From Candidatus Heimdallarchaeota archaeon (GTDB lineage Archaea > Asgardarchaeota > Heimdallarchaeia > Heimdallarchaeales > Heimdallarchaeaceae), in NCBI GenBank assembly GCA_019057815.1, contig JAHLWR010000010.1, forward strand, positions 32,001 through 96,000: a stretch of 64,000 nt of DNA. Reading direction: 5' to 3'. Below, one piece after another: positions 6,120 through 35,247 of this stretch. Position 1 is the stretch's first letter, and each line of letters opens with the position of its first letter. A program made the position numbers and the translations under genes. The notes under the pieces were generated by a model, which saw only the letters and a list, made by a program, of their open reading frames with translations, was not told the DNA's origin and made no database searches.

Positions 6120-6840
6120 AAAAATAATAGTATCAAATGATAATACACACCATTTATTTAATGAAAAACCATTATATGCAAAAAAATTCAAACGTGTTTT
6201 CAAATTCCATCCACCAGGATTAGCACCTGTGTTAGATGAATCAGGAGCTTATCATATAGAACTTGATGGAAATGAAGCTTACAAAGAGAGATTCATCAAA
6301 ACTTTTGGTTACTATTTTGATAAAGCTGCAATAATCACGAAAGAGGGATGGGGTCATATTGACATTAAAGGTAATTTAGTCTATGAACCTATTTATGATT
6401 GGGTTGGAAATTATCAAGATGAAGTATGCACGGTACGAGATAAAAAAGGGAGTTATTTCCATATTAAAGATAATGGAGATAGAGTCTATTCTGCGAACAT
6501 GCTTTATGCAGGAGATTTCAGGAATGAAATTGCTGTAGTTAGAAAGAACAATGGATTATGTACCCATATTTATAAAGATGGAACATCAGTTCATGGAAAA
6601 TATTTCATTGATTTAGATGTATTCCATAAAGGATTTGCAAGAGCAAAAAACAAAGAAGGTTGGTTTCACATTAATGAAGAAGGAAAAGAAATCTATCAAG
6701 AAAAATATAAATGCAATGAACCGTTCTACAATGGGTATGCACTAGTTGAAAACATGTTAGGCAATAGACTAATCATAGATGAAGGGGGGAATTATGTACA
6801 CACAGTAATTGAACTTAGTAAGATAGAGGAAATGAAATGA
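6097..6840 (+). CDS. WG-repeat (beta-repeat) protein
   Basis: Repeated F..G.A.V....W.HI...G units (EGWGHIDIKGN, FHKGFARAKNKEGWFHINEEG, FYNGYALV). Likely start is ATG 6109. Confidence 0.75.
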   Translation: MYISMNLRKIIVSNDNTHHLFNEKPLYAKKFKRVFKFHPPGLAPVLDESGAYHIELDGNEAYKERFIKTFGYYFDKAAIITKEGWGHIDIKGNLVYEPIYDWVGNYQDEVCTVRDKKGSYFHIKDNGDRVYSANMLYAGDFRNEIAVVRKNNGLCTHIYKDGTSVHGKYFIDLDVFHKGFARAKNKEGWFHINEEGKEIYQEKYKCNEPFYNGYALVENMLGNRLIIDEGGNYVHTVIELSKIEEMK

Positions 6841-8501
6841 ATGATTTAATGACATTAGGATTTTATGGTCCTACTAATCAATGGACACATGATCATTCAG
6901 CAGTATTGACTAAAAATGGAGAGATACATACATTCCTACAATTGGAAAGATTAACAAGAATTAAAAGAGATAATCGAATTGCTGATTATTTAGCTTTTTT
7001 CCTTAAACAATCAGGATGTGATTTTCAGGATTTGGATAAGCTACAAGTAGGTTATGCTAATTCTTTTTCTCTTGATTCTGATCGTTTTTTTAGAATATCA
7101 GAGAACAACATTATGAGTTCAAACTGTGAAGTGGAATTTAAGCATGAAGGGACTGATAAGCTAGAGGAAACAAAAGTTATTGGTAAAATAGAAAAAAAGT
7201 CAGTGGAAGCTACTATTGTTCCCCATGAAATAGCTCATATTTTTTCATGTATTCCCTTTTACGGAAATTTTAAGGATAATTCTTTACTAATCCACGTTGA
7301 TGGAGCAGCATCTATATCAAATGCATCTGCTTGGATATACAAAAATAATAAGTTACAACTTCTAGAATATACAACAAATTTTCATCATGCTCTCCTGAAT
7401 TTTTCCTATAATGATCTAGTTTTTGATATCTTGAAACTTGAGAGAACAAAACACAAGGGGATGCCAGGAAGATTAATGGGTTACTCATCATATGGAAAAT
7501 GCAACAAAGGATTACTGCAATGGTTAAGAGCAAAGGATTTCTTTTTAGAATATGATAAATTTCCTAAAAAGCTATTTCTGAACGAATCAAAGAAGAAATT
7601 CTCATATAATTTAGACTACATTGAGAATAAACACCGATTTTCTTTTAACATTGCAGCTTGTATTCACAAACACTTTGAGAAAAAAATTCTAGAATTTATG
7701 GAAAAACACAGATTAAATACTGGTGCGGAGTTTTTATACTATTCAGGTGGAGCTGCATTAAATATCAAACTAAACAGGGAAATTGTAAATTCTAGGAAAT
7801 TTAAAGAGGTTTATATTCCACCTACCGCTGATGATTCAGGTGTGGGTTTAGGAGCTGCTTTTTATCTGGAATGGAAAAATAAAAATGATCCAATAATCCA
7901 TAATCCTTTTCTTAATAATTTTGGTCTTAGAAAAGATAAACACAACATTAAATTTTCTGTTGATGATGTATGTAAAGATATATCTAAAGGTAAAATTTTA
8001 GGTATATACACTAATAATGGTGAAGCAGGTCCTAGAGCATTAGGACATCGCTCAATAATTGCAAATCCTTGTATTAAAAGCATGAAACAAAAAGTTAGTG
8101 AGGAAATAAAAGGTAGAGAATGGTATCGTCCTTTAGCTCCTATTATTTTAGAAACAGAGTTGGAAGATTTGTTTACTAATTATGTTAAATCACCAATAAT
8201 GTATTTCATGTTATATGCGTTTAAGGTAAAGGATAATAAAAAAAATGAAATTCCTGCAATAGTTCACAAAGATGGTACTACAAGAGCCCAAGTTGTTAAA
8301 AAGGGCGATAAAAATCTAAGACTTCTTGTAGAAATCTTAATAACACTAAAAGATGATTATGATATTCCTTGTATGATCAACACTTCTTTTAATGCTACGG
8401 GTGAACCTATAGTTCATAGTGAAAAGGATGCATTAGATACAGCAAAAAAGATAGGTTTAGAAAGAGTGGTTATCAATAATGAGTATTTAAAATTGAGATG
8501 A
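6837..8501 (+). CDS. O-carbamoyltransferase (NodU/CmcH/TobZ family)
   Basis: HDHSA, PHEIAH, SGGAALN, DDSG..LGAA, EAGPRALGHRSI, KGREWYRPLAP, HKDGTTRAQ, NTSFN..GEPIV. Confidence 0.92.
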   Translation: MNDLMTLGFYGPTNQWTHDHSAVLTKNGEIHTFLQLERLTRIKRDNRIADYLAFFLKQSGCDFQDLDKLQVGYANSFSLDSDRFFRISENNIMSSNCEVEFKHEGTDKLEETKVIGKIEKKSVEATIVPHEIAHIFSCIPFYGNFKDNSLLIHVDGAASISNASAWIYKNNKLQLLEYTTNFHHALLNFSYNDLVFDILKLERTKHKGMPGRLMGYSSYGKCNKGLLQWLRAKDFFLEYDKFPKKLFLNESKKKFSYNLDYIENKHRFSFNIAACIHKHFEKKILEFMEKHRLNTGAEFLYYSGGAALNIKLNREIVNSRKFKEVYIPPTADDSGVGLGAAFYLEWKNKNDPIIHNPFLNNFGLRKDKHNIKFSVDDVCKDISKGKILGIYTNNGEAGPRALGHRSIIANPCIKSMKQKVSEEIKGREWYRPLAPIILETELEDLFTNYVKSPIMYFMLYAFKVKDNKKNEIPAIVHKDGTTRAQVVKKGDKNLRLLVEILITLKDDYDIPCMINTSFNATGEPIVHSEKDALDTAKKIGLERVVINNEYLKLR

Positions 8502-8505
8502 CAAT

Positions 8506-9084
8506 ATGTTGATTCTTATTGCAAGGCATGGTGAGGATGTGGGTTGCAATACACCCGAAGAAAAAAGACTTCTAACTAAAAGAGGAAGGAAACAAGCAGA
8601 AAAACTAGGAAAGCTAATTAAACATTTTAATCCAACTTACATCTACTCTAGTAGTTTAAACAGAGCAAAGCAAACAGCTAAAGTAGTAGCAGAAATGAGT
8701 AATTTAAGGTTTAGAATAAATGATTTTATTCACGAACAACAATTATTCAAGGAAGAAGAAGAGCTACAACTTTTAAGAGTTAAAAGAGGATATATAGATT
8801 TTAATGCAACAATCATAAAGGGAGAGAAATACACAGACTTAATATCAAGAGCCGAGAAGGTTAAAAGATGGATACTAAGTGAACACCAAATAAAAAAAGA
8901 TAGAATTGTGCTCATTACTCATGGAAGATTCATGACAGTTCTAATTAGCTTATTTCTGGGTTTTAAACCAGATGGATTCTTTCTAGCTAATTATAACACA
9001 TCTTATGCAATCATAAGAATATCCAGAAATTGGAGACCTATGCTAGTTCTTCCATCACCTGACAATTTACATCTTTTAGAATAA
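8506..9084 (+). CDS. Histidine phosphatase (PGM/CobC family)
   Basis: RHGE, LT..GRKQA, SS.L.RA.QTA, ITHG. Confidence 0.9.
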   Translation: MLILIARHGEDVGCNTPEEKRLLTKRGRKQAEKLGKLIKHFNPTYIYSSSLNRAKQTAKVVAEMSNLRFRINDFIHEQQLFKEEEELQLLRVKRGYIDFNATIIKGEKYTDLISRAEKVKRWILSEHQIKKDRIVLITHGRFMTVLISLFLGFKPDGFFLANYNTSYAIIRISRNWRPMLVLPSPDNLHLLE

Positions 9085-15647: not shown

Positions 15648-18590
15648 ATGAACAAAATAAAAATACTTGCATTGTCAGATGTTCGTATTCATGATTGGAA
15701 TCAAGTTGTTAATTATCTAAAACGCAATTATGAAAATGGGAATGTCATTGATTTATTGTTGTATGGAGGAGATGATGTTAATAAATTACTTAATTTAACC
15801 ATAGATGATTTCAGGAATTTGAACTATCATTATAAAATCTTTCAAAGTAAGAACTTTGATTTGACATATGCTGATCTAAAAGATGTAATTATGAGTGATT
15901 TATATTTAAGTAAAAATATAGATAAACTTGGAGAAATTCAGAATAAAAAATTAACCAATAGATTTATCAAAAAAACATCCAAAAAATCAAGAATTCACTG
16001 GAAATTAAAAACGCATCTTAAAGAAGATATCAACGAACTCCAAGAAAATCTCAATTATCCACATTTGAAATATTTTAGAGAAGACAAATGTTTAATTTCT
16101 ATTTTCCCTAAAAAAATAATTCCTATCAAGATTGAAAATTCTAAAGATATTTACAATCATTGTCAAAAAGAACATAAGAAATCACTTAAATTTCTTGATA
16201 ATTTTATTTCAGATCTTAATCAATTAAGAAATGCTAATTCAATCATGCTCTACAAAACATATAGAAGATTACTTAAAGCTACTAAAAACACCAAAACATA
16301 TCATAACAATAAAAAGAAAATACTAAGTCTTCTGGAAAAGATTTTAGAAAAATTTAGTTTAAACATATATGATATTAGTCAAGAATCCATTATTTTTAAT
16401 AATAGAAAAATAAGTATCCGTTTAAGTTCTTATCTTTTTTTTGAAACTGAAGGATTATTAAGAAAAGAACACTGTTCGATAGCATTTTTATATAAAACAT
16501 TGAATTTTTTTAGAAAATTCTGTATGATATATGAACATCTGATTAATCAAGATTCAGATCTAAAAGAAATTTTTTTTGAAGATCCCTTTTATAATTGGAG
16601 AGTTCTAATACTACAAATAGAACAAAAATCCATATTGAAAGAAATTAAGAAATATATAAAATATGGTGTTGCTTTAGTTTGTGGAAATGATGATTTTGAG
16701 GATTCCATAGAGAGGATAAAATTCTATGATTGTTTTAATCTACAAGAAAAACCACTGTTCTTTAGAAATCTAACAATAATTGGTTTAGAAGGATCTGAAG
16801 ATAGAGAACTAGATAAATATAGCAAAAATAGAGAGCTATTTAGAGAACCTAGATCTAATGTTGAGAAAATTAGAGTAGGAATTGGACCAACAATCTTTCC
16901 GATTAGAGAACAAGAAAAAAAACTACATAATCATATATCACTAATTGAAGAAAAAGCACCTGAGAATAAGATCCTAATAGTTTCTCATTCTCCACCTTTA
17001 GGTATTTTAGATTTAGCTTATAGATTTGGATGTAATCATATAGGTAGTATAGTATTAAGAGAATTTATAGATAAATTTCGGAAAAAAAATTGTGGAATTA
17101 TTTGCGGTCATGTTCATTCTTGGGGAGGTAATAAGAGCATTTACAAAGGAGTTCCTATTTACAACATCTCATGTCATGATATGACGAGTAAAGGGGATTA
17201 TCCCCCATTTAATGCTTTATTTCTAGAAGTTGATAAAAATGGAGATATCATATATGAAGATATCTTTAATATTCTTATTGCAGAAAAAGAGAAATATAGA
17301 AATCAACCAACTTCCGTTCTCTCCAATATCGGTAAAAAGAGACAAATAATGTTGGAAAAAATTGGAATCAACTCAATTGGGGAATATGCAAAAATAGACT
17401 ATGATGAGCTCTTCCTAAATTTGTATAACCTTTATAAAGAAATAGGTGACAAATTTTATTGGGGGTTTTATCATAAGACATATTGGGGCGCAAAATTTCT
17501 ACTTAAAGAAATTGATAAACCAAAAAAGCTAGATACCATAGAATATGAAAGAAAGAACGCCATTGTTTTGGATTTAGAAACTGAATTAGTACAAGATAGA
17601 ATGGCACAAGACTTCAGTAATACTCGTATTTGGATGATTGGAATATATCATGTTGAAAAATGTAAACTCAAACAATTCTATTTAGGCAATTACGATAATA
17701 TCAGAGACATGCTGGTTGATTTTCTTTCTTGGATTTTTGAGAATGAGATAGAAACGATATTTGTTTACAGTTCAAATAAATTCGATGAGAAAATCTTAAA
17801 CACCAATTTAGAAAGATTTGTATATAAATCTGGAAGGGGAATATTACCCCTAGAGTTTTCAAAATGGAGTATTAACCATTTATTCGTTCCTAAAGACTTC
17901 CCATCTTCTCCTAAATATGTTAATTTATTCGGAGAATGGATAAAAAAGCTTTGTTTACCCTCCTACAGACTTGCAGAAATGTCCAAGCTAATTTTTAATA
18001 AAGAAGATACTATAACTGGTTTTAATTGTGGTCAAATAGGATCTCACTTAATTATATCTAGAAAAGAAGATTATGGAATATTGGAATGCAAATACTGCAA
18101 AGATTTGGTACAAAAAGTTAAGAAAAAAAATGAAGATGATGTTGTTTTTACTTCTAAATTGTTAGACTACTTTGAGAAATTAGAAGTAAGTTCCAATGAG
18201 AAAAAAGAAATTAAAAAATCTGTTAGAAAGAAATCTGGAGATGGTTTTAAATGTATTTCTTATAAAAACGGAATGAAAAATTGTTATGATAATAGAAAAC
18301 TAAATCAGAAAGAATATCTCTGTTACAAAATAGTTGAAAAAATGTTAAAGTTTGGAGAGAGTCATAGAGATGAGAGCTCAAGTTTTCAAGAAGAATACCA
18401 AATTCAAATGAAAACCACATTCAGTGATATATCATTAAAAACTTGCCAAATAACTTATTTTTATAATCAAGGAAGAGTAAGAATAAAGAGGAATATTGAA
18501 AGACATAAACATCAAAGAGTTGGTATAGACATAATAAAACTAACAAAAAACCAACTTCTTGAGCTTGAAAAACTGACTGATAAAATTTAA
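15648..18590 (+). CDS. Calcineurin-like metallophosphoesterase (with large insertion) + HhH + RNase H-like (RNase_H_2/YprB, DEDD) fusion
   Basis: LSDVR, GGDD, GNDD, SHSPP, CGHVH; LSNIGKKRQIMLEKIGINSI (HhH); VLDLETE..WMIGI..KFD..NEDDV. Confidence 0.7.
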   Translation: MNKIKILALSDVRIHDWNQVVNYLKRNYENGNVIDLLLYGGDDVNKLLNLTIDDFRNLNYHYKIFQSKNFDLTYADLKDVIMSDLYLSKNIDKLGEIQNKKLTNRFIKKTSKKSRIHWKLKTHLKEDINELQENLNYPHLKYFREDKCLISIFPKKIIPIKIENSKDIYNHCQKEHKKSLKFLDNFISDLNQLRNANSIMLYKTYRRLLKATKNTKTYHNNKKKILSLLEKILEKFSLNIYDISQESIIFNNRKISIRLSSYLFFETEGLLRKEHCSIAFLYKTLNFFRKFCMIYEHLINQDSDLKEIFFEDPFYNWRVLILQIEQKSILKEIKKYIKYGVALVCGNDDFEDSIERIKFYDCFNLQEKPLFFRNLTIIGLEGSEDRELDKYSKNRELFREPRSNVEKIRVGIGPTIFPIREQEKKLHNHISLIEEKAPENKILIVSHSPPLGILDLAYRFGCNHIGSIVLREFIDKFRKKNCGIICGHVHSWGGNKSIYKGVPIYNISCHDMTSKGDYPPFNALFLEVDKNGDIIYEDIFNILIAEKEKYRNQPTSVLSNIGKKRQIMLEKIGINSIGEYAKIDYDELFLNLYNLYKEIGDKFYWGFYHKTYWGAKFLLKEIDKPKKLDTIEYERKNAIVLDLETELVQDRMAQDFSNTRIWMIGIYHVEKCKLKQFYLGNYDNIRDMLVDFLSWIFENEIETIFVYSSNKFDEKILNTNLERFVYKSGRGILPLEFSKWSINHLFVPKDFPSSPKYVNLFGEWIKKLCLPSYRLAEMSKLIFNKEDTITGFNCGQIGSHLIISRKEDYGILECKYCKDLVQKVKKKNEDDVVFTSKLLDYFEKLEVSSNEKKEIKKSVRKKSGDGFKCISYKNGMKNCYDNRKLNQKEYLCYKIVEKMLKFGESHRDESSSFQEEYQIQMKTTFSDISLKTCQITYFYNQGRVRIKRNIERHKHQRVGIDIIKLTKNQLLELEKLTDKI

Positions 18591-19470: not shown

Positions 19471-20997
19471 TTACTTTGAGACAAACCTAGCATTCTGTTT
19501 TATCTTTGGATATTTCTGAATATTATCTAGATCTTTAAGAGATTTTAGAACAACATAGTATTCACTTTTTAGTTTAAATATCTCATAGGGAAACTTAAAG
19601 GGTTTTAATTTAACACCTTGTTTCTTCTCTTTTTTGGTTATAAAAAGTTCCATATGGTCAATCTTTTCAGCTTCTTCAGGTAATTTTGGAGGGACGATTG
19701 TCCTTGTTACAGTAATTTTTTTAGGTATTTTGTCCTCAAATTTCTTTGTGGTAACTGGTTTTTCTTTTAAGAGTTTATTCATTTCACTTAAATCCTTTGT
19801 CTCTCTTTTACCTTGATCATCGAAAAATTCTGCTATTATTTCCTTTTTCAGAATATCTCTACCTTTTGGAATTTGAATAAAACCAACATCACAATCTTGC
19901 ACAGATTGTTTTTCCTTCCATTCCAAGGGAGCAGATTCAATCCAATTTTTCGCAATTTCTTCTAATTCACTTAATGAATTGTTAGAAAGCTTTATTCCGA
20001 CTTCAAATCCTTCATCCAATCCTCTCTTCTCAAAATTCGCTGTCATTACTATACCAAGTTCATTTTCTGAATCCATGATAAATTTAGCGTGAAGATATTT
20101 GTAAGCTAAAATCCTTACACCGTTTTTTGCAGCTGCTTCAACAAACGGATAATTTTTTTCCTTTGGTCTAGTTAGAATTGTAAGTTTTTTCTCTTTACAA
20201 AAATTAATCAAATCTTGTGCAATTTCATGTTTAATGTCAAAACTGTAACTAGATATAATTAGTTCGGAAGAAGCATTTTTGATTAATTTAGAAATTTCTT
20301 CTTTAAGAGTTCTAGAGGAATAAGAAGTATTGATAATGGCATCTTTTGCACTAATATCTTTGAGTTTAATAGTTTTAACATCATCCCAATGCCCTATTCT
20401 TGTAAGTTCTTGTTTACTTTCTAACCAGAAGCCTTTACGAAAAAGGTTGAAAAGGCTTGATGTTTCATCTTTATCTAATATTATTCCTATCTCTTGATTT
20501 CTAGTTAAAGCTTCTTTGGTAAAGTTTGCAGTTGATAAAAATCCTTTCTTATTTTCTGTAGTTGGATCAATGAGCAAAAATTTAGCATGTAGATGTTCAC
20601 TTGTTCTTGCTAGTACTTTACCTGTAAGTTTACTCAACATCATTTTGTGTTCTTCTAAGGTTTTTTTATCGAAATCAGATTGTTCATCTTTGTATTCTTT
20701 CTCAAGTTGAGCATCTGTAGAAAATAAAAGATAACACCTTACACCTCTTTCACTTGCATTAATAATTGATTTAATAATTCTAGTATCACTTAAAATAAAT
20801 GAGCACAACATTACAGTATGTTTTGCGCTTTTGATTGCCCCAATTAACAACTTATGGAAATCATCAGATTCATTTCCAATTTGAATGACCGTAGAGAAGG
20901 TTGTTGAATCTATTTTTCTATGTCTTCTTTCTTTCCAATGCGCTGGAATTGTATACTCGTATTGATAACTATTGTTTTGTTCTTTTTCTTTAATCAA
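19471..20997 (-). CDS. Phospholipase D-superfamily protein with two HKD modules (putative nuclease)
   Basis: HLHAKFLLID..STANFT..NQEIG and YLHAKFIMD..MTANFE..FEVG; no TM helices, unlike cardiolipin synthase. Confidence 0.85.
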   Translation of the reverse strand: MIKEKEQNNSYQYEYTIPAHWKERRHRKIDSTTFSTVIQIGNESDDFHKLLIGAIKSAKHTVMLCSFILSDTRIIKSIINASERGVRCYLLFSTDAQLEKEYKDEQSDFDKKTLEEHKMMLSKLTGKVLARTSEHLHAKFLLIDPTTENKKGFLSTANFTKEALTRNQEIGIILDKDETSSLFNLFRKGFWLESKQELTRIGHWDDVKTIKLKDISAKDAIINTSYSSRTLKEEISKLIKNASSELIISSYSFDIKHEIAQDLINFCKEKKLTILTRPKEKNYPFVEAAAKNGVRILAYKYLHAKFIMDSENELGIVMTANFEKRGLDEGFEVGIKLSNNSLSELEEIAKNWIESAPLEWKEKQSVQDCDVGFIQIPKGRDILKKEIIAEFFDDQGKRETKDLSEMNKLLKEKPVTTKKFEDKIPKKITVTRTIVPPKLPEEAEKIDHMELFITKKEKKQGVKLKPFKFPYEIFKLKSEYYVVLKSLKDLDNIQKYPKIKQNARFVSK

Positions 20998-22096
20998 AAG
21001 AAATAACCTCCTCTAATAACATGTCTTCTGGAGCCTTGAGAAACCAATATTTTTGAGAACCAAATTCAAGTTCGTCAAGAAGTTCATCCCTTTTTGGTAT
21101 ATCTAGTTTAAAATCTTTTAAATCAGAGAATTCATCAAGCATTTCTTTCCATTGAATTTCATACTGATTACCTACAAGATATAGGAAGCATTTACGTTCT
21201 AAAAATATAGTTTTAGCCCATAATATCGCACTTATCTGACAATCTGGAAAGATTGAAACATCATAAAATTTTACTTGTGAAAAATTGCCTAAATCTCCAA
21301 GTTTAATGCTCTTTTTATCAAAGTTTTTTAGAAAACTATTTACCTCAGATAATTGCAAATTTGAAGGATTCTGAGGAATTCTCCATCTCTTTAGGTCTGC
21401 ATTGGGTGAGATTATTTTAAGTAACTGATCAACCAAAAGTTTGTGTTCATATCCTTCAGGGAATGGAAAAGAAAATTCCTTGTTTTGGATAACTACTTTA
21501 GATTTCCATTTTCCTTCAGAATAAGTAAGAAGGATATCTAAATTTACCACCGAATTTCTATTAACTATTCCTATCTTATTTATTTCATGTATATCCACCA
21601 ATCTTGGCCGTTTTTCAAGTGTTCTAAGTTTAGTACCTTCTGTTTTTAAAACATGATTAGGTAAGACAATTTTTTTCTCTGTTCTCCCGTCTAGAGATTC
21701 TTTTAATTCTCTATCCAAATTTGGGTCTAATCTTTTAAAATCAATAATCACTTGTGGCAATAAAACATCTTTGACTGTTCGAATTTCAAAAGCACCTTCA
21801 TCTGGTGTTAAAATAGTCTCTTCTTCTAGTGCCTCAAATCCTCTGGGAGACAAAGAATAATCACTATCAATCAAATCTAATATCTTTAGTTCTTCTAGTA
21901 TATTTATAACAAATTTCTCTGAAAAACTTTGAAACAAGGTCTTATTCATATATTTAACCGAATTTTCTTTCTTTTCTTCAGCTTCTTGAACTGCTTTAAG
22001 AAGTGGTAAAAGTTCTGGTCTTCTTTCACTTATAAAAACACTCATCCTTACTGAATAAGAGACACTAGATATCTGTCTTTTTAGTACTATTCTCAT
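20990..22096 (-). CDS. Hypothetical protein (possible N-terminal winged helix) in the viperin operon
   Basis: 368-aa ORF translationally coupled between helicase and PLD; 'ILEELKILDLIDSDYSLSPRGFEAL' resembles a wHTH wing. Confidence 0.7.
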   Translation of the reverse strand: MRIVLKRQISSVSYSVRMSVFISERRPELLPLLKAVQEAEEKKENSVKYMNKTLFQSFSEKFVINILEELKILDLIDSDYSLSPRGFEALEEETILTPDEGAFEIRTVKDVLLPQVIIDFKRLDPNLDRELKESLDGRTEKKIVLPNHVLKTEGTKLRTLEKRPRLVDIHEINKIGIVNRNSVVNLDILLTYSEGKWKSKVVIQNKEFSFPFPEGYEHKLLVDQLLKIISPNADLKRWRIPQNPSNLQLSEVNSFLKNFDKKSIKLGDLGNFSQVKFYDVSIFPDCQISAILWAKTIFLERKCFLYLVGNQYEIQWKEMLDEFSDLKDFKLDIPKRDELLDELEFGSQKYWFLKAPEDMLLEEVISFD

Positions 22097-22102
22097 TTTA
22101 TC

Positions 22103-24877
22103 TCACCATATTTTTTTAGATTCAACTCTTTCAGCAAGTTGCTGCAAAATTTCTGACCTTTTTTGAATCTCCTTGAACAATTTTTTATTTCCAACGATAA
22201 CTAGTTGATACTTTGCTCTTGTTAATGCTACATTTAATCTATTAGGAGTATCTAAGAATCCCAATCCTCTACTTCTAACTAGTGATAAATATACAATATC
22301 AGCTTCATGACCTTGAAAGCGATCAACGGCACATAGTTCAATCACTACATTTTTTTCAGGAAGATAAAAAGTTCTAGTTCTTCTACTTTTTAAATAAGAT
22401 TGAAGTTTTTTTCTGATTAAATTTTCTTGACTAAGATAAAAGGGTAATATTGCAATTTTCCAAGGTTTATTATCCTTCCTTCTGTTATCCGAAGTCCACA
22501 TTAAAAGATCTTTGATTTCTTTTATTATTGCATTTGCTTCCTTGGAATTACTATTTTTATGTGATTGATTGATTTCTCTGTTTGAAAGCCTTATGTCAAT
22601 CCAAACTATCCTATTTTTGTAATTAGGATATTCAAATTGCCTTTCTTCTGAGATATATTGGGGGTCTTGTAATGCTTCATTATCATAGAAAAATTCTCGT
22701 GGAAAACTAGATATACTAGGATGCATTCGATGTTGAAACCTTAAAATCTTATGACGGTGTTTCATTACATTTTTAACGGGTAGCCCATCAGTTATTATCA
22801 ATCCAATATCCTTTTCTTTTTGAGATTGACTCCTCTCAAAACCCTTCTGTAGAAGTTCAATAATGGAAGGAAATGCTAATCTTTTTACTTGATCCAAATC
22901 AGATAGAAATTTTGTCCTTCTAATGTCACTCCAATGATTTGGAATTAATTTTTCTATTTGCTTCTTGTATCTGTTATCCACAAGACTCCTTAACTCATAA
23001 TCACGAACTAATCGCCAACCTATAGCCTCACTCCATGTTTGATCATTTGATATCTTGAGATTAATCTCATAATTTTCTTTCAGAACCATTCTTATTTTTC
23101 TTTTCCATCTTCTAAGATCATCATACAGAGAAGATAACTCTATTGGTTGTAAAGAACTTGCATCGTGTTCTACATAAGAATTTATACTCAGAGGAAGAAA
23201 TTCTTCGTTTTTTTCGAAATCTGCCTTTGTTCCAAATATAATAGAAGCACCGAGTAAATTATAAAATTCCATTTTATTCAAATCTGATAGTACATAGTAG
23301 GGGATAGTACTTGGAATAAGTTTTTCTAGAAGTTCATCATTATGCAATGGTTTAGCTAACAGTTTCAAACACTTGATTGTATGATTTTTGTTAATTTTCT
23401 GGATTTCTTCAAAATTATTGACTAATGCAATTATATTTCCTTCTTCAGGAGCAAAGGTTATAATATTACTGACAACACCGTCTTCATCAACATAAGGTGG
23501 AAGCTGTTTTATATCTCCTACAATTATATGACGTTCTGCAATTAAAGCAGGAACAAGAAATTCTTGAAAAGTTGTTTTACTAGCTTCATCAAGAATTAAT
23601 ATATCATAAGGTCTCATTGATGCTGTTTTACCTTCAAACCTTAATTTCTCAATTTCTGGATGTTTAAGAATACCAATGGTTGTTCCACAAACTAAATTTG
23701 CAGCTCTTACAAACACACGTTTCATATAATCGGGAGTTGTTTTCTCATCAGATTCTAAAATTCCTAACATCATATCTTGTGATTCAGTTTTGTTCTTAAT
23801 TGATCTCAAATTTTTTCTCAATTTTTCCTTCTCAGTTTCCCAAAAAGAATCAAGCTGATATTCAGTTGCCAAATCTGATATTCTGTCTGTTTTACCAATT
23901 CTAATAGGAAGAACATACTGTTTAACTTTTTCATAAACATCTGAATCTTCATCCATAAGTTTCTCTATCACATTGTCTACTGCTACATGAGTTGAAGCTA
24001 CAAGTAGAATTTTTAAGTCTCTTTTTAACGCTTGGTAAATTAGCTCACATATAGTTGTTGTTTTTCCTGAACCAGGAGGACCCTCTAAAATTGCTAGGTC
24101 AGGAGTACCAAGAGCAATTTTAACAAATTCTCTTTGATCTACATTGCCTGACCTAAGATCGTCTGTCAAAAATAACCACTCATTATTTCGAATTGGATGA
24201 GGAATAACATCATCAAATTTTACAGTTCTTATATTTTCGAATAGTCTAATCAGATTTCTGTTGTGTTTAAGAGGACGATTTAGGAGTTGCTCTAGAGATT
24301 GGTTGATCACATCAAGTTGATACAAGTTTGGTCTTAAATATAATCTCATTCTGTTTCTTTTATTATTGATATCCTCTTTTTTTAGTACTAGTATGTCATA
24401 TGGAGGGTATGTTGCTAAGACTTTGATACTTCTTGGATTTTCTAGATGTTTAGTGGGAAAAACTTCTTTTGAATTCAAAAACTGTTCTTTTTTATGCTGA
24501 TAGGTTTCTAAACCCTCGCTATTCTGGGGTTCTATACATTTATATAAGACCCCTCTTCCATTAGTAGATAGCTTAGTTACTCGATCTAGTTGTTTTTTCA
24601 ATCTTTTTTTTCGTTTGATTTCCTTTTTATCATAACCTCCTAAATAGAGATCGTTTTCAGTTGTATAGTCCTCAAGCAGATAAAACTCCTCAGTCATTAA
24701 ATCTTCTACTTCAAACCTCTCTACAGTAATATATATTCGCTTAACTCTTGACGTATACATTATTCTATCAATAAAACGGAAATATGGTTTAATTCCATGG
24801 AGTGTTGTCCACATAATTGATTTTACATCTCTTTCAGATAACCTCTCATCTAAGTTCTCATAATAAAGAAAAGACAT
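22103..24877 (-). CDS. SF1B helicase, UPF1/DNA2/NAM7-like (AAA_11+AAA_12)
   Basis: GPPGSGKTT, ASTHVAVDN, ILDEAS, VGDIKQLPP, QHRMHP.I, VDRFQGHEAD, RLNVALTRAK. Confidence 0.93.
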   Translation of the reverse strand: MSFLYYENLDERLSERDVKSIMWTTLHGIKPYFRFIDRIMYTSRVKRIYITVERFEVEDLMTEEFYLLEDYTTENDLYLGGYDKKEIKRKKRLKKQLDRVTKLSTNGRGVLYKCIEPQNSEGLETYQHKKEQFLNSKEVFPTKHLENPRSIKVLATYPPYDILVLKKEDINNKRNRMRLYLRPNLYQLDVINQSLEQLLNRPLKHNRNLIRLFENIRTVKFDDVIPHPIRNNEWLFLTDDLRSGNVDQREFVKIALGTPDLAILEGPPGSGKTTTICELIYQALKRDLKILLVASTHVAVDNVIEKLMDEDSDVYEKVKQYVLPIRIGKTDRISDLATEYQLDSFWETEKEKLRKNLRSIKNKTESQDMMLGILESDEKTTPDYMKRVFVRAANLVCGTTIGILKHPEIEKLRFEGKTASMRPYDILILDEASKTTFQEFLVPALIAERHIIVGDIKQLPPYVDEDGVVSNIITFAPEEGNIIALVNNFEEIQKINKNHTIKCLKLLAKPLHNDELLEKLIPSTIPYYVLSDLNKMEFYNLLGASIIFGTKADFEKNEEFLPLSINSYVEHDASSLQPIELSSLYDDLRRWKRKIRMVLKENYEINLKISNDQTWSEAIGWRLVRDYELRSLVDNRYKKQIEKLIPNHWSDIRRTKFLSDLDQVKRLAFPSIIELLQKGFERSQSQKEKDIGLIITDGLPVKNVMKHRHKILRFQHRMHPSISSFPREFFYDNEALQDPQYISEERQFEYPNYKNRIVWIDIRLSNREINQSHKNSNSKEANAIIKEIKDLLMWTSDNRRKDNKPWKIAILPFYLSQENLIRKKLQSYLKSRRTRTFYLPEKNVVIELCAVDRFQGHEADIVYLSLVRSRGLGFLDTPNRLNVALTRAKYQLVIVGNKKLFKEIQKRSEILQQLAERVESKKIW

Positions 24878-25758
24878 TAGCTAACACTCCTTGGCTTGAG
24901 ATTCCAGTTATAAATTCCACCACGTTTCTTGAATTTTTCATAGTGCCAACCTACTTGTTGAATTGCTGAATAAGGGTCTACTTCAAGAATAGATAGACTA
25001 TATTTCAGATAACCCTCAGAGTTCTGAAAAAACCTACCCATAGCGTCAAGCATAAGATAAGAACCTCTCATAAGTTCATTATTCTCTGCAATGGGATTCA
25101 ATGATTCATGCTTCTGTACAAAATTGTCAAATTGCTCTGATGATATCTGAAGAGACTGAAAATATTCATCATTCTGACCTTTTACAGATAATACTTGGAA
25201 TACTTTCCATCTTTGAGGATTGAGTTCAATAATCAAATCAGTCATCTCTTCTTCCCAGTTCATACTAGTAACAACAGTATTGATTTTAAGTTTGATACCA
25301 GCTGTATGAATTACTTTTACTATTTCTTTAATCTTTTGGATATGATTTCCTGAACCTCTTCCAAGTTTATATTGTGTTTCTTCTTTTGAACTATCTAAAC
25401 TTAAAGCAATCCAATCTATGTAAGATTTGTACTCTTCGATAAAATTACCCGTTAGTAATGAACCACTTGTTATCAGCATTGTTGTCATATCTAGCTTTTT
25501 AGCTTCTATTATTAAATCTCCTAAATGAGGACAGAGTAACGGTTCTCCACCTGTAAGAGATAATTTCTCTGTTCCTGCAGAATTGAGGATTGAAGGTATT
25601 TTTAGTGCTTCTTCTTTTGATAATAAAGATTTTATCTCATTAAAGGTTCCAAAACAGAATTTGCATTTATTCGTACATCTAGGCCACAAATGCCAGTTTA
25701 CACTTATCAAAGGAAAAGAGGAATTATTAAGACAAGAATAATTCTCTTTCATTTTCAT
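24877..25758 (-). CDS. rsad2: Viperin (RSAD2-like antiviral radical SAM ddhNTP synthase)
   Basis: SVNWHLWPRCTNKCKFCF, GGEP, KINTVV, PQRWKVFQ, ENNELMRGSYLMLD..GRF and C-terminal FKKRGGIYNW, all viperin-specific motifs (cf. animal SVNYHFTRQCNYKCGFCF..FLKRGGKYIW). Confidence 0.93.
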   Translation of the reverse strand: MKMKENYSCLNNSSFPLISVNWHLWPRCTNKCKFCFGTFNEIKSLLSKEEALKIPSILNSAGTEKLSLTGGEPLLCPHLGDLIIEAKKLDMTTMLITSGSLLTGNFIEEYKSYIDWIALSLDSSKEETQYKLGRGSGNHIQKIKEIVKVIHTAGIKLKINTVVTSMNWEEEMTDLIIELNPQRWKVFQVLSVKGQNDEYFQSLQISSEQFDNFVQKHESLNPIAENNELMRGSYLMLDAMGRFFQNSEGYLKYSLSILEVDPYSAIQQVGWHYEKFKKRGGIYNWNLKPRSVS

Positions 25759-26228
25759 TAATGAGTAGCTCCTAGGATTATATCAGATTTTGATAGATTC
25801 ACGAAATTTGACTGTTTGAAAAAGAAGAAATCAGTCGCTTCAGTTGCTAGATTTCCATTAGCTATTTTATAAGGAAACACTCTATTGAAGTCTAAATCAT
25901 AAAACATTGTTTGAAATTCTCTAAATCTGTCGTTCGAAAGAATAGCAGTATCTAATTCTCTAGCGTAAGCTAGTATAGCTATGTCATCATATATTCTTGG
26001 GTCAAGTAAAAGAACATCATCATCCTCTTGAAATCTTTTCTTGAATTTCTTGAATCCTGGTAAAATAAAGAGTGGCGATACTCCATTATTCTTTGCCCAA
26101 ATTCGGACATAATCAATATTATGAAGATTGCTTTCTCCTTTTGGATGTTTTATAACATTAAGTCCATCAACTATTAAGATATTTTTTTGGTTTTCTCTTT
26201 TTGTTTTTCGTTTTGTTTGGAGTTGCAT
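25758..26228 (-). CDS. NYN/PIN ribonuclease of the Zc3h12a (Regnase-1/N4BP1)-like type
   Basis: ILIVDGLNV..YDDIAIL.YA....AILSNDRFREF..RVFPYKI; all four catalytic Asp present. ATG at 26228 is the likely start; TAATG overlap with viperin. Confidence 0.8.
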   Translation of the reverse strand: MQLQTKRKTKRENQKNILIVDGLNVIKHPKGESNLHNIDYVRIWAKNNGVSPLFILPGFKKFKKRFQEDDDVLLLDPRIYDDIAILAYARELDTAILSNDRFREFQTMFYDLDFNRVFPYKIANGNLATEATDFFFFKQSNFVNLSKSDIILGATH

Positions 26229-26335
26229 TAAATATACAAAGAAGAACAAGATATTAAAAGTTTTTCTTTTATATTTAAAATTAATATTGTATTATACAAA
26301 ACAATCTTTTTAAATATGTCTGCTCTCACAACATT
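26228..26335. promoter_or_regulatory. Divergent promoter region with candidate operator palindromes
   Basis: TTGTAT-T-ATACAA perfect inverted repeat at 26287-26299. Imperfect IR TTAAATATACAAAGAAGAAC / GTTTTTCTTTTATATTTAA at 26228-26278. TATA-like TTTTAAATA upstream of the CARF gene. Confidence 0.45.
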
Positions 26336-26980
26336 ATGCGCAACTTGCATATTGCGACTGTTGGTAAATCACCTGGTCCAATCATTGAAGGAATTAGAGT
26401 ATATCCTATTGATGATTTGTATATGTTGTATAATGAGGGGTCCCATAAGGAAGCTTTAGAAATAAAAAAATCAGCAATCAATTGGAAGCTTAAGTGCAAC
26501 ATGATTGAGGTTGATCAATTTGATATCGAAAATATTTTTGTTACAATCCTGTTGATTCAAAAACGAAACCTTGGAAGTAAAATTTACATAAACGTAACAG
26601 GAGGTACAAAAATAATGTCAAACGCAGCTTTTCTTGCAGGATATCTAATAGGTGCTACTATTTATTATATTAGAGAAGCTCAAGAAAATGAATCTCTTCA
26701 AGATTGTGTTATTGAGCTTCCTGTACCTAAAATACAATTAGATGACATCGATGAAAATCAACAAAAAATTTTGTCTCATTTGCTAAAAAATAATGGAAAG
26801 ATAACGACAGGAACTACAGAACTAAGTAAGAACCTTCATTTAAAACCTCAATTAATAAGTTATCATCTTAAAAGATTGGAAATTGCTAATCTAATCATAA
26901 ACGAAAAAAAAGGAAGAATAAATATTATAAGTTTAACAAGCGCAGGTAGGTTTGCAGCAAAATACCATGGTATTTTATAA
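26336..26980 (+). CDS. CARF + winged-HTH transcriptional regulator (Csa3/DUF6293-like)
   Basis: HIATVG.SP..I..GI, INVTGGTKIM (CARF); C-terminal ELSKNL..KPQLISYHLKRLE..LI..LTSAGR (ArsR/MarR wHTH). Confidence 0.85.
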   Translation: MRNLHIATVGKSPGPIIEGIRVYPIDDLYMLYNEGSHKEALEIKKSAINWKLKCNMIEVDQFDIENIFVTILLIQKRNLGSKIYINVTGGTKIMSNAAFLAGYLIGATIYYIREAQENESLQDCVIELPVPKIQLDDIDENQQKILSHLLKNNGKITTGTTELSKNLHLKPQLISYHLKRLEIANLIINEKKGRINIISLTSAGRFAAKYHGIL

Positions 26981-26999
26981 ATTTGAGAGATGGAAAATA

Positions 27000-27950
27000 T
27001 TGAATATTCTCATCACAGGAGGTTTGGGTTTTATTGGTTCTCATCTTGTTAAATTCCTTTTAGAAAAAACAGAGAACAATTTAATCATTTTAGATAACTT
27101 ATCAACTGGTAAGAAATCAAATATTTACAATCTGGTTAATAAAGAGAATATCTCCAGAGTAGAAATTATTAAGGAAACAGTTGAAAATGTAGACCAAATA
27201 AAGCTAAAAAATATTTCAAAAATATTCCATTTGGCAAGTCATGCTAGTCCAACAGATTTTAGAAAACACTCTCTAGAAATTATGATGACTAACTCTATTG
27301 GAACAAAGAAAGTTTTAGATATAGCGCTTAAGAACAATGCTACATTCATCTTAGCTTCAACATCTGAAATATACGGTAATCCATTAATTCATCCACAAAA
27401 CGAAGATTATTATGGTAACGTTAATACACTAGGAATAAGAGCATGTTATGATGAATCTAAGCGTTTTTCGGAAACACTTTCGATGATTTATAAAAGAGAT
27501 AAAAATTTGGATGTTAGAATTCTTAGAATTTTCAACACATATGGAACTAATATGAGACTTAATGACGGGAGAGTTATACCAACTTTCTTGAAACAAGCAT
27601 TAACAGGTAACCCCATAACTGTCAGAGGGGATGGAAAACAATCAAGATCGTTATGTCATGTTTCTGACCTTATAAATGGGATTTATTTGATTTCGGTTAT
27701 TAAAAACATTAAATACAATGTGTACAACATTGGGAATCCAGAAGAAATAGAAATAATCGAGTTAGCTGAAATGATAAAAAAAATGACTTGTTCATGTTCG
27801 AAAATCAAATATATAGAGGAATTAGACGATGAACCTCGAAGAAGAAGACCGGATATTAATAGAATAAAGGACGAAACAGGTTGGTCACCCACTATTTCGT
27901 TAAGGGAGGGACTTAAGAAGATTATACCACATTACAAAGAGATGTTATAA
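27000..27950 (+). CDS. UDP-glucuronate decarboxylase-like SDR (UXS family)
   Basis: TGGLGFIGSHL, HLASHASP, ASTSEIYG.P..HPQ.E.YYGNVN..G.RACYDESKR, RIFNTYG..M..NDGRV. TTG start at 27000 is likely. Confidence 0.88.
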   Translation: MNILITGGLGFIGSHLVKFLLEKTENNLIILDNLSTGKKSNIYNLVNKENISRVEIIKETVENVDQIKLKNISKIFHLASHASPTDFRKHSLEIMMTNSIGTKKVLDIALKNNATFILASTSEIYGNPLIHPQNEDYYGNVNTLGIRACYDESKRFSETLSMIYKRDKNLDVRILRIFNTYGTNMRLNDGRVIPTFLKQALTGNPITVRGDGKQSRSLCHVSDLINGIYLISVIKNIKYNVYNIGNPEEIEIIELAEMIKKMTCSCSKIKYIEELDDEPRRRRPDINRIKDETGWSPTISLREGLKKIIPHYKEML

Positions 27951-27966
27951 AAGAAAAAAGAATAAG

Positions 27967-28965
27967 GTGGCAGCAATTTCAGTTAAAAACAATAAATTTG
28001 CTAATATTGACAAACAAAATTCTTTAGTTATTGATGTGACCTATAAATGTAATTCTAGCTGTTATTACTGTCAATGGGGAGAATCAAGGAAATCGTCAAA
28101 GGAAATAAATTATGAGAAATTACTTGTTCCTGAAAAAACTTTGTCATCTATAGGTATTGAGCGAGTTGTTCTTTCAGGAGGAGAACCACTTCTTCATAAT
28201 AGAATAATAGACATAATAGATTATTACAACCAGAAAAAAGTTGATTCCATTATCTTATTAACAAATGGAATATTATTAGATCTGTCAAAACTTCAACTAT
28301 TGTTAAAGCATGGAGTGACTGGAATGACTTTCTCAATTGATTCACTTGATTTTGAAGTCATGAAAAAATCCAGAAACGTTACAAAAGAAGTACACCAAAA
28401 AATTATCAATAATATTAATTCGATTGTGAAATTTCGAGAAACCAAAAGTTTTGAATTGGGAATAAATTGCGTTATCTCCTCTTCCAATTTGCGTTGGGAT
28501 TATCTTCATCCTCTTGTTCAGTTTTGTAATCAAAACAACATTGATTGGCTGAAATTTCAGCCAATTTTTGACGATGGTTATCTATCGTTAAATGCACCTC
28601 AACTTAAACTGAGTAAGAATCATTCGGAAGACGTCATTGAAATAGGAAAAAAGATACTAAATTTTGCAACAATAAACACCAATAGTATAGAATTCTGGAA
28701 ATCACTTTCATCGGTTTTGCATGGTAAAAAACTTCTAGGTAAGTCATGTGGGCTAGTTAAAAGACAAACTATTCTAATTAGAGGGGATTTGAAATTTTGC
28801 TATTGGTTAGATAATCCAATTTACTCTTCATGTTCTATGGAATTAACTAAAGAGAAAATTCAAGAAATAAGAGATAAATTTAAAGATTCAAAAGAAAGGT
28901 GTAAAACAGGAATGTATTGTTTCTGTCTACAATCTTTATCACATAAATGGGATATTTCAAAATGA
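27967..28965 (+). CDS. Radical SAM protein with C-terminal Cys cluster
   Basis: CNSSCYYC, SGGEPLL, TNG, SIDS; C-terminal C..FC..C...CFC. Confidence 0.88.
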   Translation: MAAISVKNNKFANIDKQNSLVIDVTYKCNSSCYYCQWGESRKSSKEINYEKLLVPEKTLSSIGIERVVLSGGEPLLHNRIIDIIDYYNQKKVDSIILLTNGILLDLSKLQLLLKHGVTGMTFSIDSLDFEVMKKSRNVTKEVHQKIINNINSIVKFRETKSFELGINCVISSSNLRWDYLHPLVQFCNQNNIDWLKFQPIFDDGYLSLNAPQLKLSKNHSEDVIEIGKKILNFATINTNSIEFWKSLSSVLHGKKLLGKSCGLVKRQTILIRGDLKFCYWLDNPIYSSCSMELTKEKIQEIRDKFKDSKERCKTGMYCFCLQSLSHKWDISK

Positions 28966-32718: not shown

Positions 32719-33591
32719 ATGCCCAAATTAGAAGACCCAAAAGGAATGAAAGAATTTTACACAGATAACTCTGATTTGAAGCTAGATACTAGTAAAAACC
32801 TTCAAGATACATCTGACTTTGAACTTGAAGCAACAACTATTTGGTCTTTTCCTAATAGAGGTAAATGGGCTTCTCATAAAGGAGATTATCGAGGAAATTT
32901 CGCCCCTCAAATACCTAGAAATGTTATTGAAAGATATTCAAAGAAGGGAAATTTAGTTTTAGATCCTATGGTTGGCAGTGGTACAACTATTATTGAAGCT
33001 AAACTTACTGGCAGAAATAGCGTTGGTATAGATATAAACAAGAAACCTCTTGAAATTGCTAAACAAAGAATTTCTCATGTTCCGAATACTAATGGTTCTA
33101 CTCACATTTTATACTTGGGAGACGCTAGAAAACTAGATAAAATTGAAGATAATTCTATAGATTTAATCTGTACTCACCCACCCTATCTCAATATAATAAG
33201 ATATTCAGAGAATAATCCTCAAGATCTCTCATCAATTGGAAGTGTTAGATATTTTACTGACGAGATGAAAAAAATAGCTCAAGAATGTTATCGTGTTCTC
33301 AAAGGAGATAAATTTTTAGCTATCTTAATTGGTGATACTCGAAAGCACAGACATTATGTTCCACTTTCTGCTTATGTTCTGAAGACTTTTCTAGATACAG
33401 GTTTTATTCTGAGAGAAGATATCATTAAACACCAATGGAACTGTGCAAGCACTCCTCAATGGCGAAAACAGAGTATGAAATACAATTTCCATTTGATCAT
33501 GCACGAACATCTATATGTGTTTAGAAAACCAAGAGATGATGAGAACATCTCTAAATTCAAGTATAGTTCCAAAAATAATGAAATTCTTTGA
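32719..33591 (+). CDS. Amino (N4-C/N6-A) DNA methyltransferase
   Basis: TIWSFP.RG.W..H.G.YRGN, DPMVGSGTT (motif I), CTHPPY (motif IV). Confidence 0.82.
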   Translation: MPKLEDPKGMKEFYTDNSDLKLDTSKNLQDTSDFELEATTIWSFPNRGKWASHKGDYRGNFAPQIPRNVIERYSKKGNLVLDPMVGSGTTIIEAKLTGRNSVGIDINKKPLEIAKQRISHVPNTNGSTHILYLGDARKLDKIEDNSIDLICTHPPYLNIIRYSENNPQDLSSIGSVRYFTDEMKKIAQECYRVLKGDKFLAILIGDTRKHRHYVPLSAYVLKTFLDTGFILREDIIKHQWNCASTPQWRKQSMKYNFHLIMHEHLYVFRKPRDDENISKFKYSSKNNEIL

Positions 33592-33594
33592 TTA

Positions 33595-34515
33595 CTAATT
33601 GATTATTAATGATTCAAGAACTCCTCCTCTACCATTAGGATCACTGCTTATGAATCTTTTAGCATGAACATTCTTAATTTCAAATCCTTCGTATAATTCA
33701 GCAATTTTAGGAACGTTAGAATTGCTTTCCATAACATAACAACCCCTTTCATCTAGATCTTTGAATACTTTAGCTAATCTCTCTTGTTCCTTTATTCCAA
33801 AACCTTCTGAAGTGTAATCGGTGAAATAAGCTGTATCAGTTAGGGGAATATAAGGAGGGTCAAAATAAACGAAATCTCCTTCTTTAGCACCTTTTACAGA
33901 TACTTCAAAATCCTCCGCGGTTATCTCAACGCTTTGCAAACACTTACTTACATTTCTGAGATTTTCAGCGTTCAGAATCTGTATATTATCTGGATAGCGA
34001 CCGAAAGGAACGTTGAATTTTCCCTGTTTATTAACTCTATAAAGACCGTTGTAACAAGTTCGATTTAGATAAATCATTCTTGCAGCTCTTAAAACTGGAT
34101 CTTTTGGTTCGTCTGCTCTAATTGTTTTAAAGACATCTTTATCGTTTTTGTATTTTTCATTGTCTGATAATTCTTCAATAAGATTTTCGACTTCAGTTTT
34201 TACGATTTTATGAAGATTAATTAATTCTTCATTTATATCCGAGATTTTTGCTTCTGTTATTTTTCCAAGGGAAAATAAATGAAAGAAAATTGCTCCTCCT
34301 CCAAAAAAAGGTTCAAAATATTTGTTAAATTTTTTTGGAAAATGTTGAGAGTATTTCTCCAATAGCCCCCTTTTTCCACCTGCCCATTTGACTACAGGTT
34401 TCAGAGATAGATAGAAATCTGAATCACCCTCAATCTTTAACTCTTTGTAAAACTTTGATAATCTAGTTTGAAAGTTGCCGTTATTCTTGTTTGAGGTGAT
34501 TTTTTTATCATTCAT
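33595..34515 (-). CDS. dam: Dam/DpnM-family N6-adenine DNA methyltransferase
   Basis: KWAGGK, EPFFGGG, YLNRTCYNGLYRVN..G.FNVPFG, YFDPPY. Confidence 0.92.
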   Translation of the reverse strand: MNDKKITSNKNNGNFQTRLSKFYKELKIEGDSDFYLSLKPVVKWAGGKRGLLEKYSQHFPKKFNKYFEPFFGGGAIFFHLFSLGKITEAKISDINEELINLHKIVKTEVENLIEELSDNEKYKNDKDVFKTIRADEPKDPVLRAARMIYLNRTCYNGLYRVNKQGKFNVPFGRYPDNIQILNAENLRNVSKCLQSVEITAEDFEVSVKGAKEGDFVYFDPPYIPLTDTAYFTDYTSEGFGIKEQERLAKVFKDLDERGCYVMESNSNVPKIAELYEGFEIKNVHAKRFISSDPNGRGGVLESLIIN

Positions 34516-34611
34516 TTTTTGAATCAGCTTCTCCTATTCTGTTGATACTTTTGGTTTTCAATATAAAAATTATCAGTTTCAATATAGTTAGAAACAAATT
34601 GATTTAAAAGT

Positions 34612-35247
34612 ATGAAGAATCAATTTAATCTTATGAAAAAAGAGTATATGTTAAAAATTATTAAAGAACTCCCCTTTGACACTAGACATGTAGTTTACAA
34701 GCAGGAGGATCTTGAGATATACCTATGGAGACCCTCAAAATTATCAAAAAGGTTTAAAGATTACAATATCGAAACGAATTTTCAAATATGGCTAAAAGAC
34801 AAAAATAGAGAATTCAGACCAAATCATCTAAGAGTAATGATTGATCTAAATCTTAGAGTAAGAAGTAGACCAGATTTGAAAGACCAACTTCTCTTAGCAT
34901 TTGATAATATTTACTATGGTAAAGATCCTAATGTGACTTTAGATAGACTATTAGACGAAGATTTTTCTCATTCACTAAATTCATTAATAGTTATTGGTTA
35001 TCTATCTCAATTGTTTATTTTAGAACAAGAATATGGGTATCCTAGAGAGAGTAAATATAATCCTCCAACTTTATTTTATCAAGGTTGGATACGACAGTTC
35101 CTTGATAATGAACGAGAAATTGACATTCTATGCATGAGCGTTTGTAACAGACAACCTCCCAAAGTAAAATATACATCTAATGAAGATAAAAATCACCCAA
35201 AATACAGTACTGAAACAGACCTTTTATGGTACCTAAAAGGCAGTTAA
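34612..35247 (+). CDS. Hypothetical protein beside the methyltransferases (candidate R-M component)
   Basis: 211-aa intact ORF divergent from dam; no motif recognised. Confidence 0.6.
   Translation: MKNQFNLMKKEYMLKIIKELPFDTRHVVYKQEDLEIYLWRPSKLSKRFKDYNIETNFQIWLKDKNREFRPNHLRVMIDLNLRVRSRPDLKDQLLLAFDNIYYGKDPNVTLDRLLDEDFSHSLNSLIVIGYLSQLFILEQEYGYPRESKYNPPTLFYQGWIRQFLDNEREIDILCMSVCNRQPPKVKYTSNEDKNHPKYSTETDLLWYLKGS

Follow-up and report, generated by a model that had tools for sequence, protein, structure and literature searches.

Viperin and Argonaute are the accepted contributions of Asgard archaea to eukaryotic immunity. For the viperins of these archaea, production of ddhNTPs has been established (10.1101/2023.09.13.557418, PMC11291487), as has antiviral activity (PMC11291487). 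The RNases HicA and RelE flank prokaryotic viperins (pVips) and have been proposed to support them (10.1101/2023.12.08.570793). Another described system, Mokosh, uses a helicase and a PLD protein in phage defence, its helicases being described as UPF1-like (10.1101/2022.05.11.491447), and MkoA in Asgard archaea was judged to be bacterial in origin (PMC11291487). In animals, the RNase Regnase-1 contacts UPF1 through the SMG1-phosphorylated T28 of UPF1 and a disordered linker of Regnase-1 (PMC7145602). Bacterial and archaeal members of the Regnase family PF11977 have already been catalogued, with function unknown (PMC5499597). Here we analysed a window of 64,000 nucleotides from an archaeon of the Candidatus Heimdallarchaeota (contig JAHLWR010000010.1), in which relatives of these proteins are encoded side by side; coordinates refer to this window unless another contig is named.

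Gene layout of the operon and family of its RNase

Five genes follow each other on the minus strand, encoding in order a stand-alone NYN RNase of the Zc3h12a/Regnase PIN type (25758-26228), a viperin (24877-25758), an SF1B helicase (22103-24877), a winged-helix protein (20990-22096) and a tandem PLD-family nuclease (19471-20997). They either overlap or are separated by a 6-base gap, with the same overlap, TAATG, at both the NYN-viperin and viperin-helicase junctions. These overlapping genes substantiate the operon of NYN, viperin and a helicase of the UPF1-like family that the sequence-only reading had proposed, and its Asgard origin and antiviral setting are supported as well; the winged-helix gene, the PLD gene and a divergent CARF regulator were not part of that reading. 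The viperin, a radical SAM protein of 293 aa with CxxxCxxC at residue 28, matches NF038283 at 288 bits (cut-off 180) and is a pVip in PADLOC (1e-83). The 924-aa helicase is of the UPF1/DNA2/MkoA type, with AAA_11 and AAA_12 domains and its motor motifs present. The winged-helix protein is a conserved protein of 368 aa, whose winged helix spans residues 25-94 and is followed by a beta-rich remainder; Foldseek gave no match for the 368-aa protein, and VIA covered the winged helix only. The PLD nuclease (508 aa) carries two HKD motifs, at H137 (canonical) and at H303 (variant spacing). Matches to PLuB, ProA and Hhe of NCBIfam and to ZacB and DrmC of PADLOC were rejected as domain-level or far below cut-off.

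On the opposite strand, the divergent gene at 26336-26980 encodes a 214-aa regulator with a CARF domain and a winged helix, which is Csa3/CARF3-like (PADLOC CARF3, 4.6e-50) and co-occurs with the operon across loci. The AT-rich gap of 107 bp between the divergent starts (26229-26335) is presumably the promoter/operator region. A sigma-70 promoter scan, which is not informative for archaea, remained at chance level, and the GC profile showed no island edge. Convergent with the PLD gene lies the gene of a 980-aa protein (15648-18590), in which motifs like those of metallophosphoesterases and a C-terminal part resembling RNase H can be made out by eye; it matches no Pfam family and, weakly, PDC-S10. 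Two convergent genes for type II DNA methyltransferases and an unknown gene of 211 aa are found at 32719-35247, and genes resembling this set adjoin the operon in two other genomes (G022 and G054), which would fit a defence island. Elsewhere in the window's genome (G000:C20, about 6500-8550, minus strand), an 811-aa Cas10-like ORF with GGDD scores below the Csm1 and Cmr2 cut-offs and possibly belongs to a divergent type III system.

The NYN protein has 156 aa from an ATG start, and an alternative in-frame TTG start at 26249 would add 7 aa. Its assignment to the Zc3h12a type, previously made from motifs, was borne out: IVDGLNV, YDD and SNDRFR are present in the ORF, and the sole Pfam match is PF11977 RNase_Zc3h12a (29.3 bits, cut-off 23). 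A single-sequence phmmer search with NYN against the PDB gave no match and profiles were needed; the profile of the NYN subfamily retrieved human ZC3H12A/B/C and KHNYN at E-values of 2e-7 to 1e-5, ranked above PRORP. The AlphaFold model of NYN (pLDDT 83) is most similar in fold to ZC3H12C (Z 13.8, rmsd 2.4, 129 aligned residues) and then to PRORP1 (Z 10.6). Together with the Pfam match, the lower fold scores against YacP/Rae1 (Z 7.6) and the LabA-type protein VPA0982 (Z 6.0) rule out a YacP or LabA grouping, the alternative against which the assignment was to be checked. The five acidic residues of Regnase-1, D141, D225, D226, D244 and D248 (PMC5499597), align with D21, D81, D82, D100 and E104 of NYN, the last position being a Glu in NYN. 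The active-site motifs are intact. The YDD motif was rejected as a Regnase hallmark, since a double Asp is present in 23 of 59 other prokaryotic members. NYN also carries Pro57-x-Phe59, a motif common to animal Regnase and N4BP1. By Pfam, with the P0028 and P0029 architectures for comparison, CCCH, UBA and KH accessory domains are absent from NYN.

Relation of the RNase to animal Regnase and N4BP1

PF11977 is present in 139 of 301 Asgard genomes; in the phylum of a haloarchaeon it was found in 6 genomes of 151, and in that of Halospina in 3 of 201. Since the family is so frequent in Asgard archaea, some neighbourhoods of NYN genes may be due to chance within defence islands. The window's genome has a second member that scores better than the operon NYN: a 598-aa protein (G000:C42; L068:142-1938) in which a long T/N-rich region separates two hydrophobic segments, the first of them N-terminal, and an NYN domain (69 bits) forms the C-terminal end. 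Almost every genome of the order encodes a similar protein of 570-600 aa, which suggests a membrane-anchored housekeeping RNase. A helicase and an NYN appear to be fused in another Asgard lineage (G230, L185:1357-4500), where a PF11977 domain of the generic type shares one frame of more than 1000 aa with a match to SF1 helicases (33% over 263 aa).

Raw similarity fails as an argument for the operon's NYN subfamily, because a generic prokaryotic profile outscores the subfamily profile on human Regnase/KHNYN (53-65 versus 28-33 bits). The sequences nevertheless differ at the end of strand 2. A Pro occupies this position in all 11 rows of the NYN subfamily, in both L152 and L153, which belong to the same class, and in both animal rows, mostly followed by x-aromatic; none of the 59 other prokaryotic rows has it, Asp or Ser being the usual residues there. 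Genes for an epimerase and a radical SAM protein come immediately after two Pro-type NYNs of family f5 (L186:3231-3746; L187:6007-6486), and such genes also stand behind the CARF regulator in the window (26952-28965).

The animal pair stood beside the Pro-type group in every tree made. Support for this grouping reached 92/86 and 97/90 in two trees, 80/76 with P0022 included, 98/97 without L152, L153 and P0022, and 64/91 with L152 and L153 alone, all these trees being based on 141-156 columns and two eukaryotic sequences, with long branches meeting at this very node. Among the alignment columns, by the criterion applied, only that of the Pro favours the grouping and five favour the generic type. 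AU tests did not reject a union of the animals with the clade of 590-aa Asgard proteins (p 0.13, 0.18) or with alphaproteobacterial members (p 0.16). Judging from alignments and trees, the NYN subfamily is tentatively considered especially close to animal Regnase/N4BP1, as a lead and not a result. We give limited credence to the further idea that animal Regnase/N4BP1/KHNYN have their prokaryotic sister in the Pro-x-aromatic subfamily of this Asgard class, which would already have been an antiviral RNase beside viperin; an Asgard origin of the Regnase/N4BP1 domain is likewise possible though rather improbable, and is the point most worth pursuing. Should this be true, viperin would have come to eukaryotes from Asgard archaea together with the nuclease domain of Regnase/N4BP1 and its immune role, the locus would mark a candidate source lineage for Regnase/N4BP1, and the inheritance would not include a partnership with the operon helicase.

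The helicase module and the genes that travel together

The best PADLOC match of the helicase is MkoA (299 bits, 1.7e-89). This match begins at about MkoA position 530, model positions 5-290 are unmatched, and Pfam finds no Ser/Thr kinase domain on the helicase. MkoC is matched at 82 bits, helicase and PLD being separate genes, and the PLD protein matches MkoB weakly (35 bits). MkoB was matched by none of 16 members of the family of the 368-aa protein, against the guess that this protein corresponds to the MkoB N-terminus. The module is predicted to be Mokosh-like in action; since the helicase lacks the MkoA kinase and is not fused to the PLD, it is neither type I nor type II as defined.

The arrangement helicase-368-aa gene-PLD recurs in 16 of 301 Asgard genomes, with the 368-aa gene between the other two wherever the contig allows. 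The same trio was found in Halospina, on two Vibrio plasmids, on a Pontibrevibacter plasmid and in three Bacteroidota; neither NYN nor viperin was in view near these bacterial loci. Compared with the helicase of the window, the bacterial ones show about 37% identity, and the tree does not resolve their branching from the Asgard helicases; a genome scan with the single helicase as query found nothing. The trio apparently constitutes an undescribed three-gene Mokosh-like module spanning bacteria and Asgard archaea. CARF-type genes accompany it in most Asgard loci and RtcR-like sigma-54 activators in four proteobacterial ones, where the activator, with a weak CARF match, follows the trio (L055:7533-14228, L145:512-7340, L146:7001-13564, L147:546-7371). 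A WYL regulator lies upstream of the Halospina trio. In G126 (L045:2213-12923) the trio comes right after type III-B Cmr genes (Cas10, Cmr3, Cmr4), and in G178 (L043:1082-8458) after a CARF gene; at these two loci it may be a CRISPR accessory effector.

Viperin occurs in 19 of 301 Asgard genomes and directly precedes the helicase in 11 GTDB genomes, with a kinase gene in between in 4 of the 11. The NYN gene is in front in two of them (G022 and the window's own genome, G000), absent in eight and out of view in one; it is hence missing from 8 of the 10 viperin-helicase loci with upstream DNA in view. Three metagenome contigs repeat the gene order of the window. Because the loci are kin, the counts are not independent and are given without statistics. 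The sister-family viperins carry a gene of the amino-acid-kinase family (PF00696), not a CMPK2-type kinase (L041:1830-2549, L048:10082-10762, L049:6644-7366, L121, L120:2248-3927), and one of them is part of a frame of 559 codons, perhaps a fusion. A kinase and an NYN in one locus were never seen among the loci inspected.

The cassette composed of CARF, NYN and viperin is joined to two different helicase lineages. Indeed, the NYN and viperin of L016 are 61% and 74% identical to those of the window and its helicase 37%, this helicase belonging to another subclade. Pairs of NYN and viperin without a helicase after them are found in L093 and G240. Furthermore, NYN genes lie directly upstream of viperin in three viperin lineages and belong to two NYN subfamilies, a recurrence that suggests selection. 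The NYN in front of viperin in P. syntrophicum MK-D1 is from a different subfamily, the generic type; in the island there (L056:1568-13046), this pair adjoins an OLD/GajA-like gene, and two CARF genes and the helicase-wHTH-PLD trio lie on the opposite strand. NYNs of the window's type are found in 5 of 83 genomes of the class, all of the window's family. No relatives of NYN were found in viral contigs, and a metagenome scan for it retrieved one generic member.

This distribution and the swapping of the cassette indicate that NYN follows viperin and not the helicase. We therefore favour, as reasonably probable, a modular and probably inducible antiviral operon of two units, in which the partner of NYN is viperin. 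It is possible, though rather improbable, that NYN is instead an independent single-gene effector, a toxin or RNase, that occupies a slot at the CARF promoter and is co-induced with no tie to viperin or helicase. Window-type NYNs with no viperin nearby (G021, G025, L095), the frequency and many contexts of PF11977 genes, and the same operon without NYN in G004, the helicase of which is 60% identical to that of the window, all fit such an effector, but the repeated position of NYN directly upstream of viperin argues against it.

The sequence-only reading had gone further and proposed that a functional link between Regnase, UPF1 and viperin is ancestral. In such a unit, the helicase would unwind stem-loops for NYN, in the way UPF1 serves Regnase-1, and the linkage would have passed on to eukaryotes. 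The three genes are indeed translationally coupled, five related loci share their order, the NYN subfamily groups with animal Regnase/N4BP1, the best PDB match of the helicase is UPF1 (105 bits), and MK-D1 has all three gene types in one locus. However, the NYN of MK-D1 belongs to another subfamily, NYN is lacking in most of the viperin-helicase loci, and its cassette with viperin was exchanged between helicase lineages. Orthologues of the helicase at about 37% identity serve in the same three-gene module in bacteria, the genome's own DNA2-like helicase scores higher on UPF1 (139 bits), and the animal contacts need phosphorylated T28 and a disordered linker (PMC7145602). The predicted complex of the helicase (residues 130-924) with NYN scored 0.22 against a mark of 0.32, which is not evidence either way. 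Taken together, an inherited unit of the three genes is very improbable, and modular assembly has most likely produced the resemblance to Regnase and UPF1 by chance. Of the suggested echo of animal immunity there remains, tentatively, the closeness of the NYN subfamily to Regnase/N4BP1 seen in the trees and the Pro motif, while the UPF1 partnership is not supported.

A CARF-regulated, RtcR-like response to RNA damage or for RNA repair, suggested by the best NCBIfam match of the bacterial trio's activator (RtcR, far below cut-off), is highly unlikely: defence is favoured by the presence of viperin, by the patchy distribution and the carriage on plasmids, and by methyltransferase, OLD and CRISPR genes nearby, and no RtcA or RtcB was recognised in the loci inspected.

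The proposed two-unit antiviral operon compared with known systems

In the favoured two-unit operon, the first unit would comprise viperin and an optional accessory gene, here the NYN RNase, and the second the SF1B helicase, the winged-helix protein and the tandem PLD nuclease, a module shared with bacteria. The CARF-HTH protein could sense a nucleotide alarm, for example cyclic oligoadenylate made by the genome's Cas10-like protein, and switch the operon on. Viperin would then produce chain-terminating ddhNTPs, and NYN, a predicted metal-dependent endoribonuclease, may act on viral or host RNA and thereby aid viperin, by analogy with the HicA and RelE RNases proposed to do so beside bacterial viperins. 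The PLD nuclease could receive RNA or RNA:DNA unwound by the helicase, the wHTH protein being a putative adaptor between the two.

The Regnase-type RNase as a viperin accessory and the three-gene Mokosh-like module are apparently a real, undescribed variant of known defence systems. Neither a Regnase-type PIN accessory nor a coupling of viperin to a helicase-wHTH-PLD module is described in the papers searched, and no paper mentioning 'Regnase' and 'Asgard' together was found in this literature. The locus would provide the first defence context for a prokaryotic Zc3h12a RNase. The helicase-wHTH-PLD module has CARF-type regulators associated with it on both sides, bacterial and Asgard, and its presence in MK-D1 places it in a cultured archaeon.

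With the PF11977 proteins Regnase-1/MCPIP1, N4BP1 and KHNYN, NYN has in common the fold, the acidic sites, the Pro-x-aromatic after strand 2 and YDD, but it is a bare domain of 156 aa, about 25 residues shorter in mid-domain and 20-25% identical. As in the animal decay pathway of Regnase-1 and UPF1 (PMC7145602), a Zc3h12a RNase and an SF1B helicase come together in the operon; unlike there, nothing in NYN evidently corresponds to the linker, the linkage is not conserved across operon loci, and the helicase is by score further from UPF1 than the DNA2-like helicase of the genome. A UPF1-like helicase gene and a separate PLD gene are shared with Mokosh type I, whereas the operon helicase has no kinase domain, the PLD is tandem and an extra wHTH gene lies between, so that the two-gene layout is not found; in contrast to type II, helicase and PLD are not fused. 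The module differs from Mokosh also by its CARF-type regulator and, often, a viperin in front. Finally, the operon shares with the prokaryotic and Asgard viperin systems a true pVip and an adjoining accessory slot, but the slot is filled by a Regnase-type PIN RNase in place of a kinase or HicA/RelE, and a helicase-wHTH-PLD module comes attached to the viperin.
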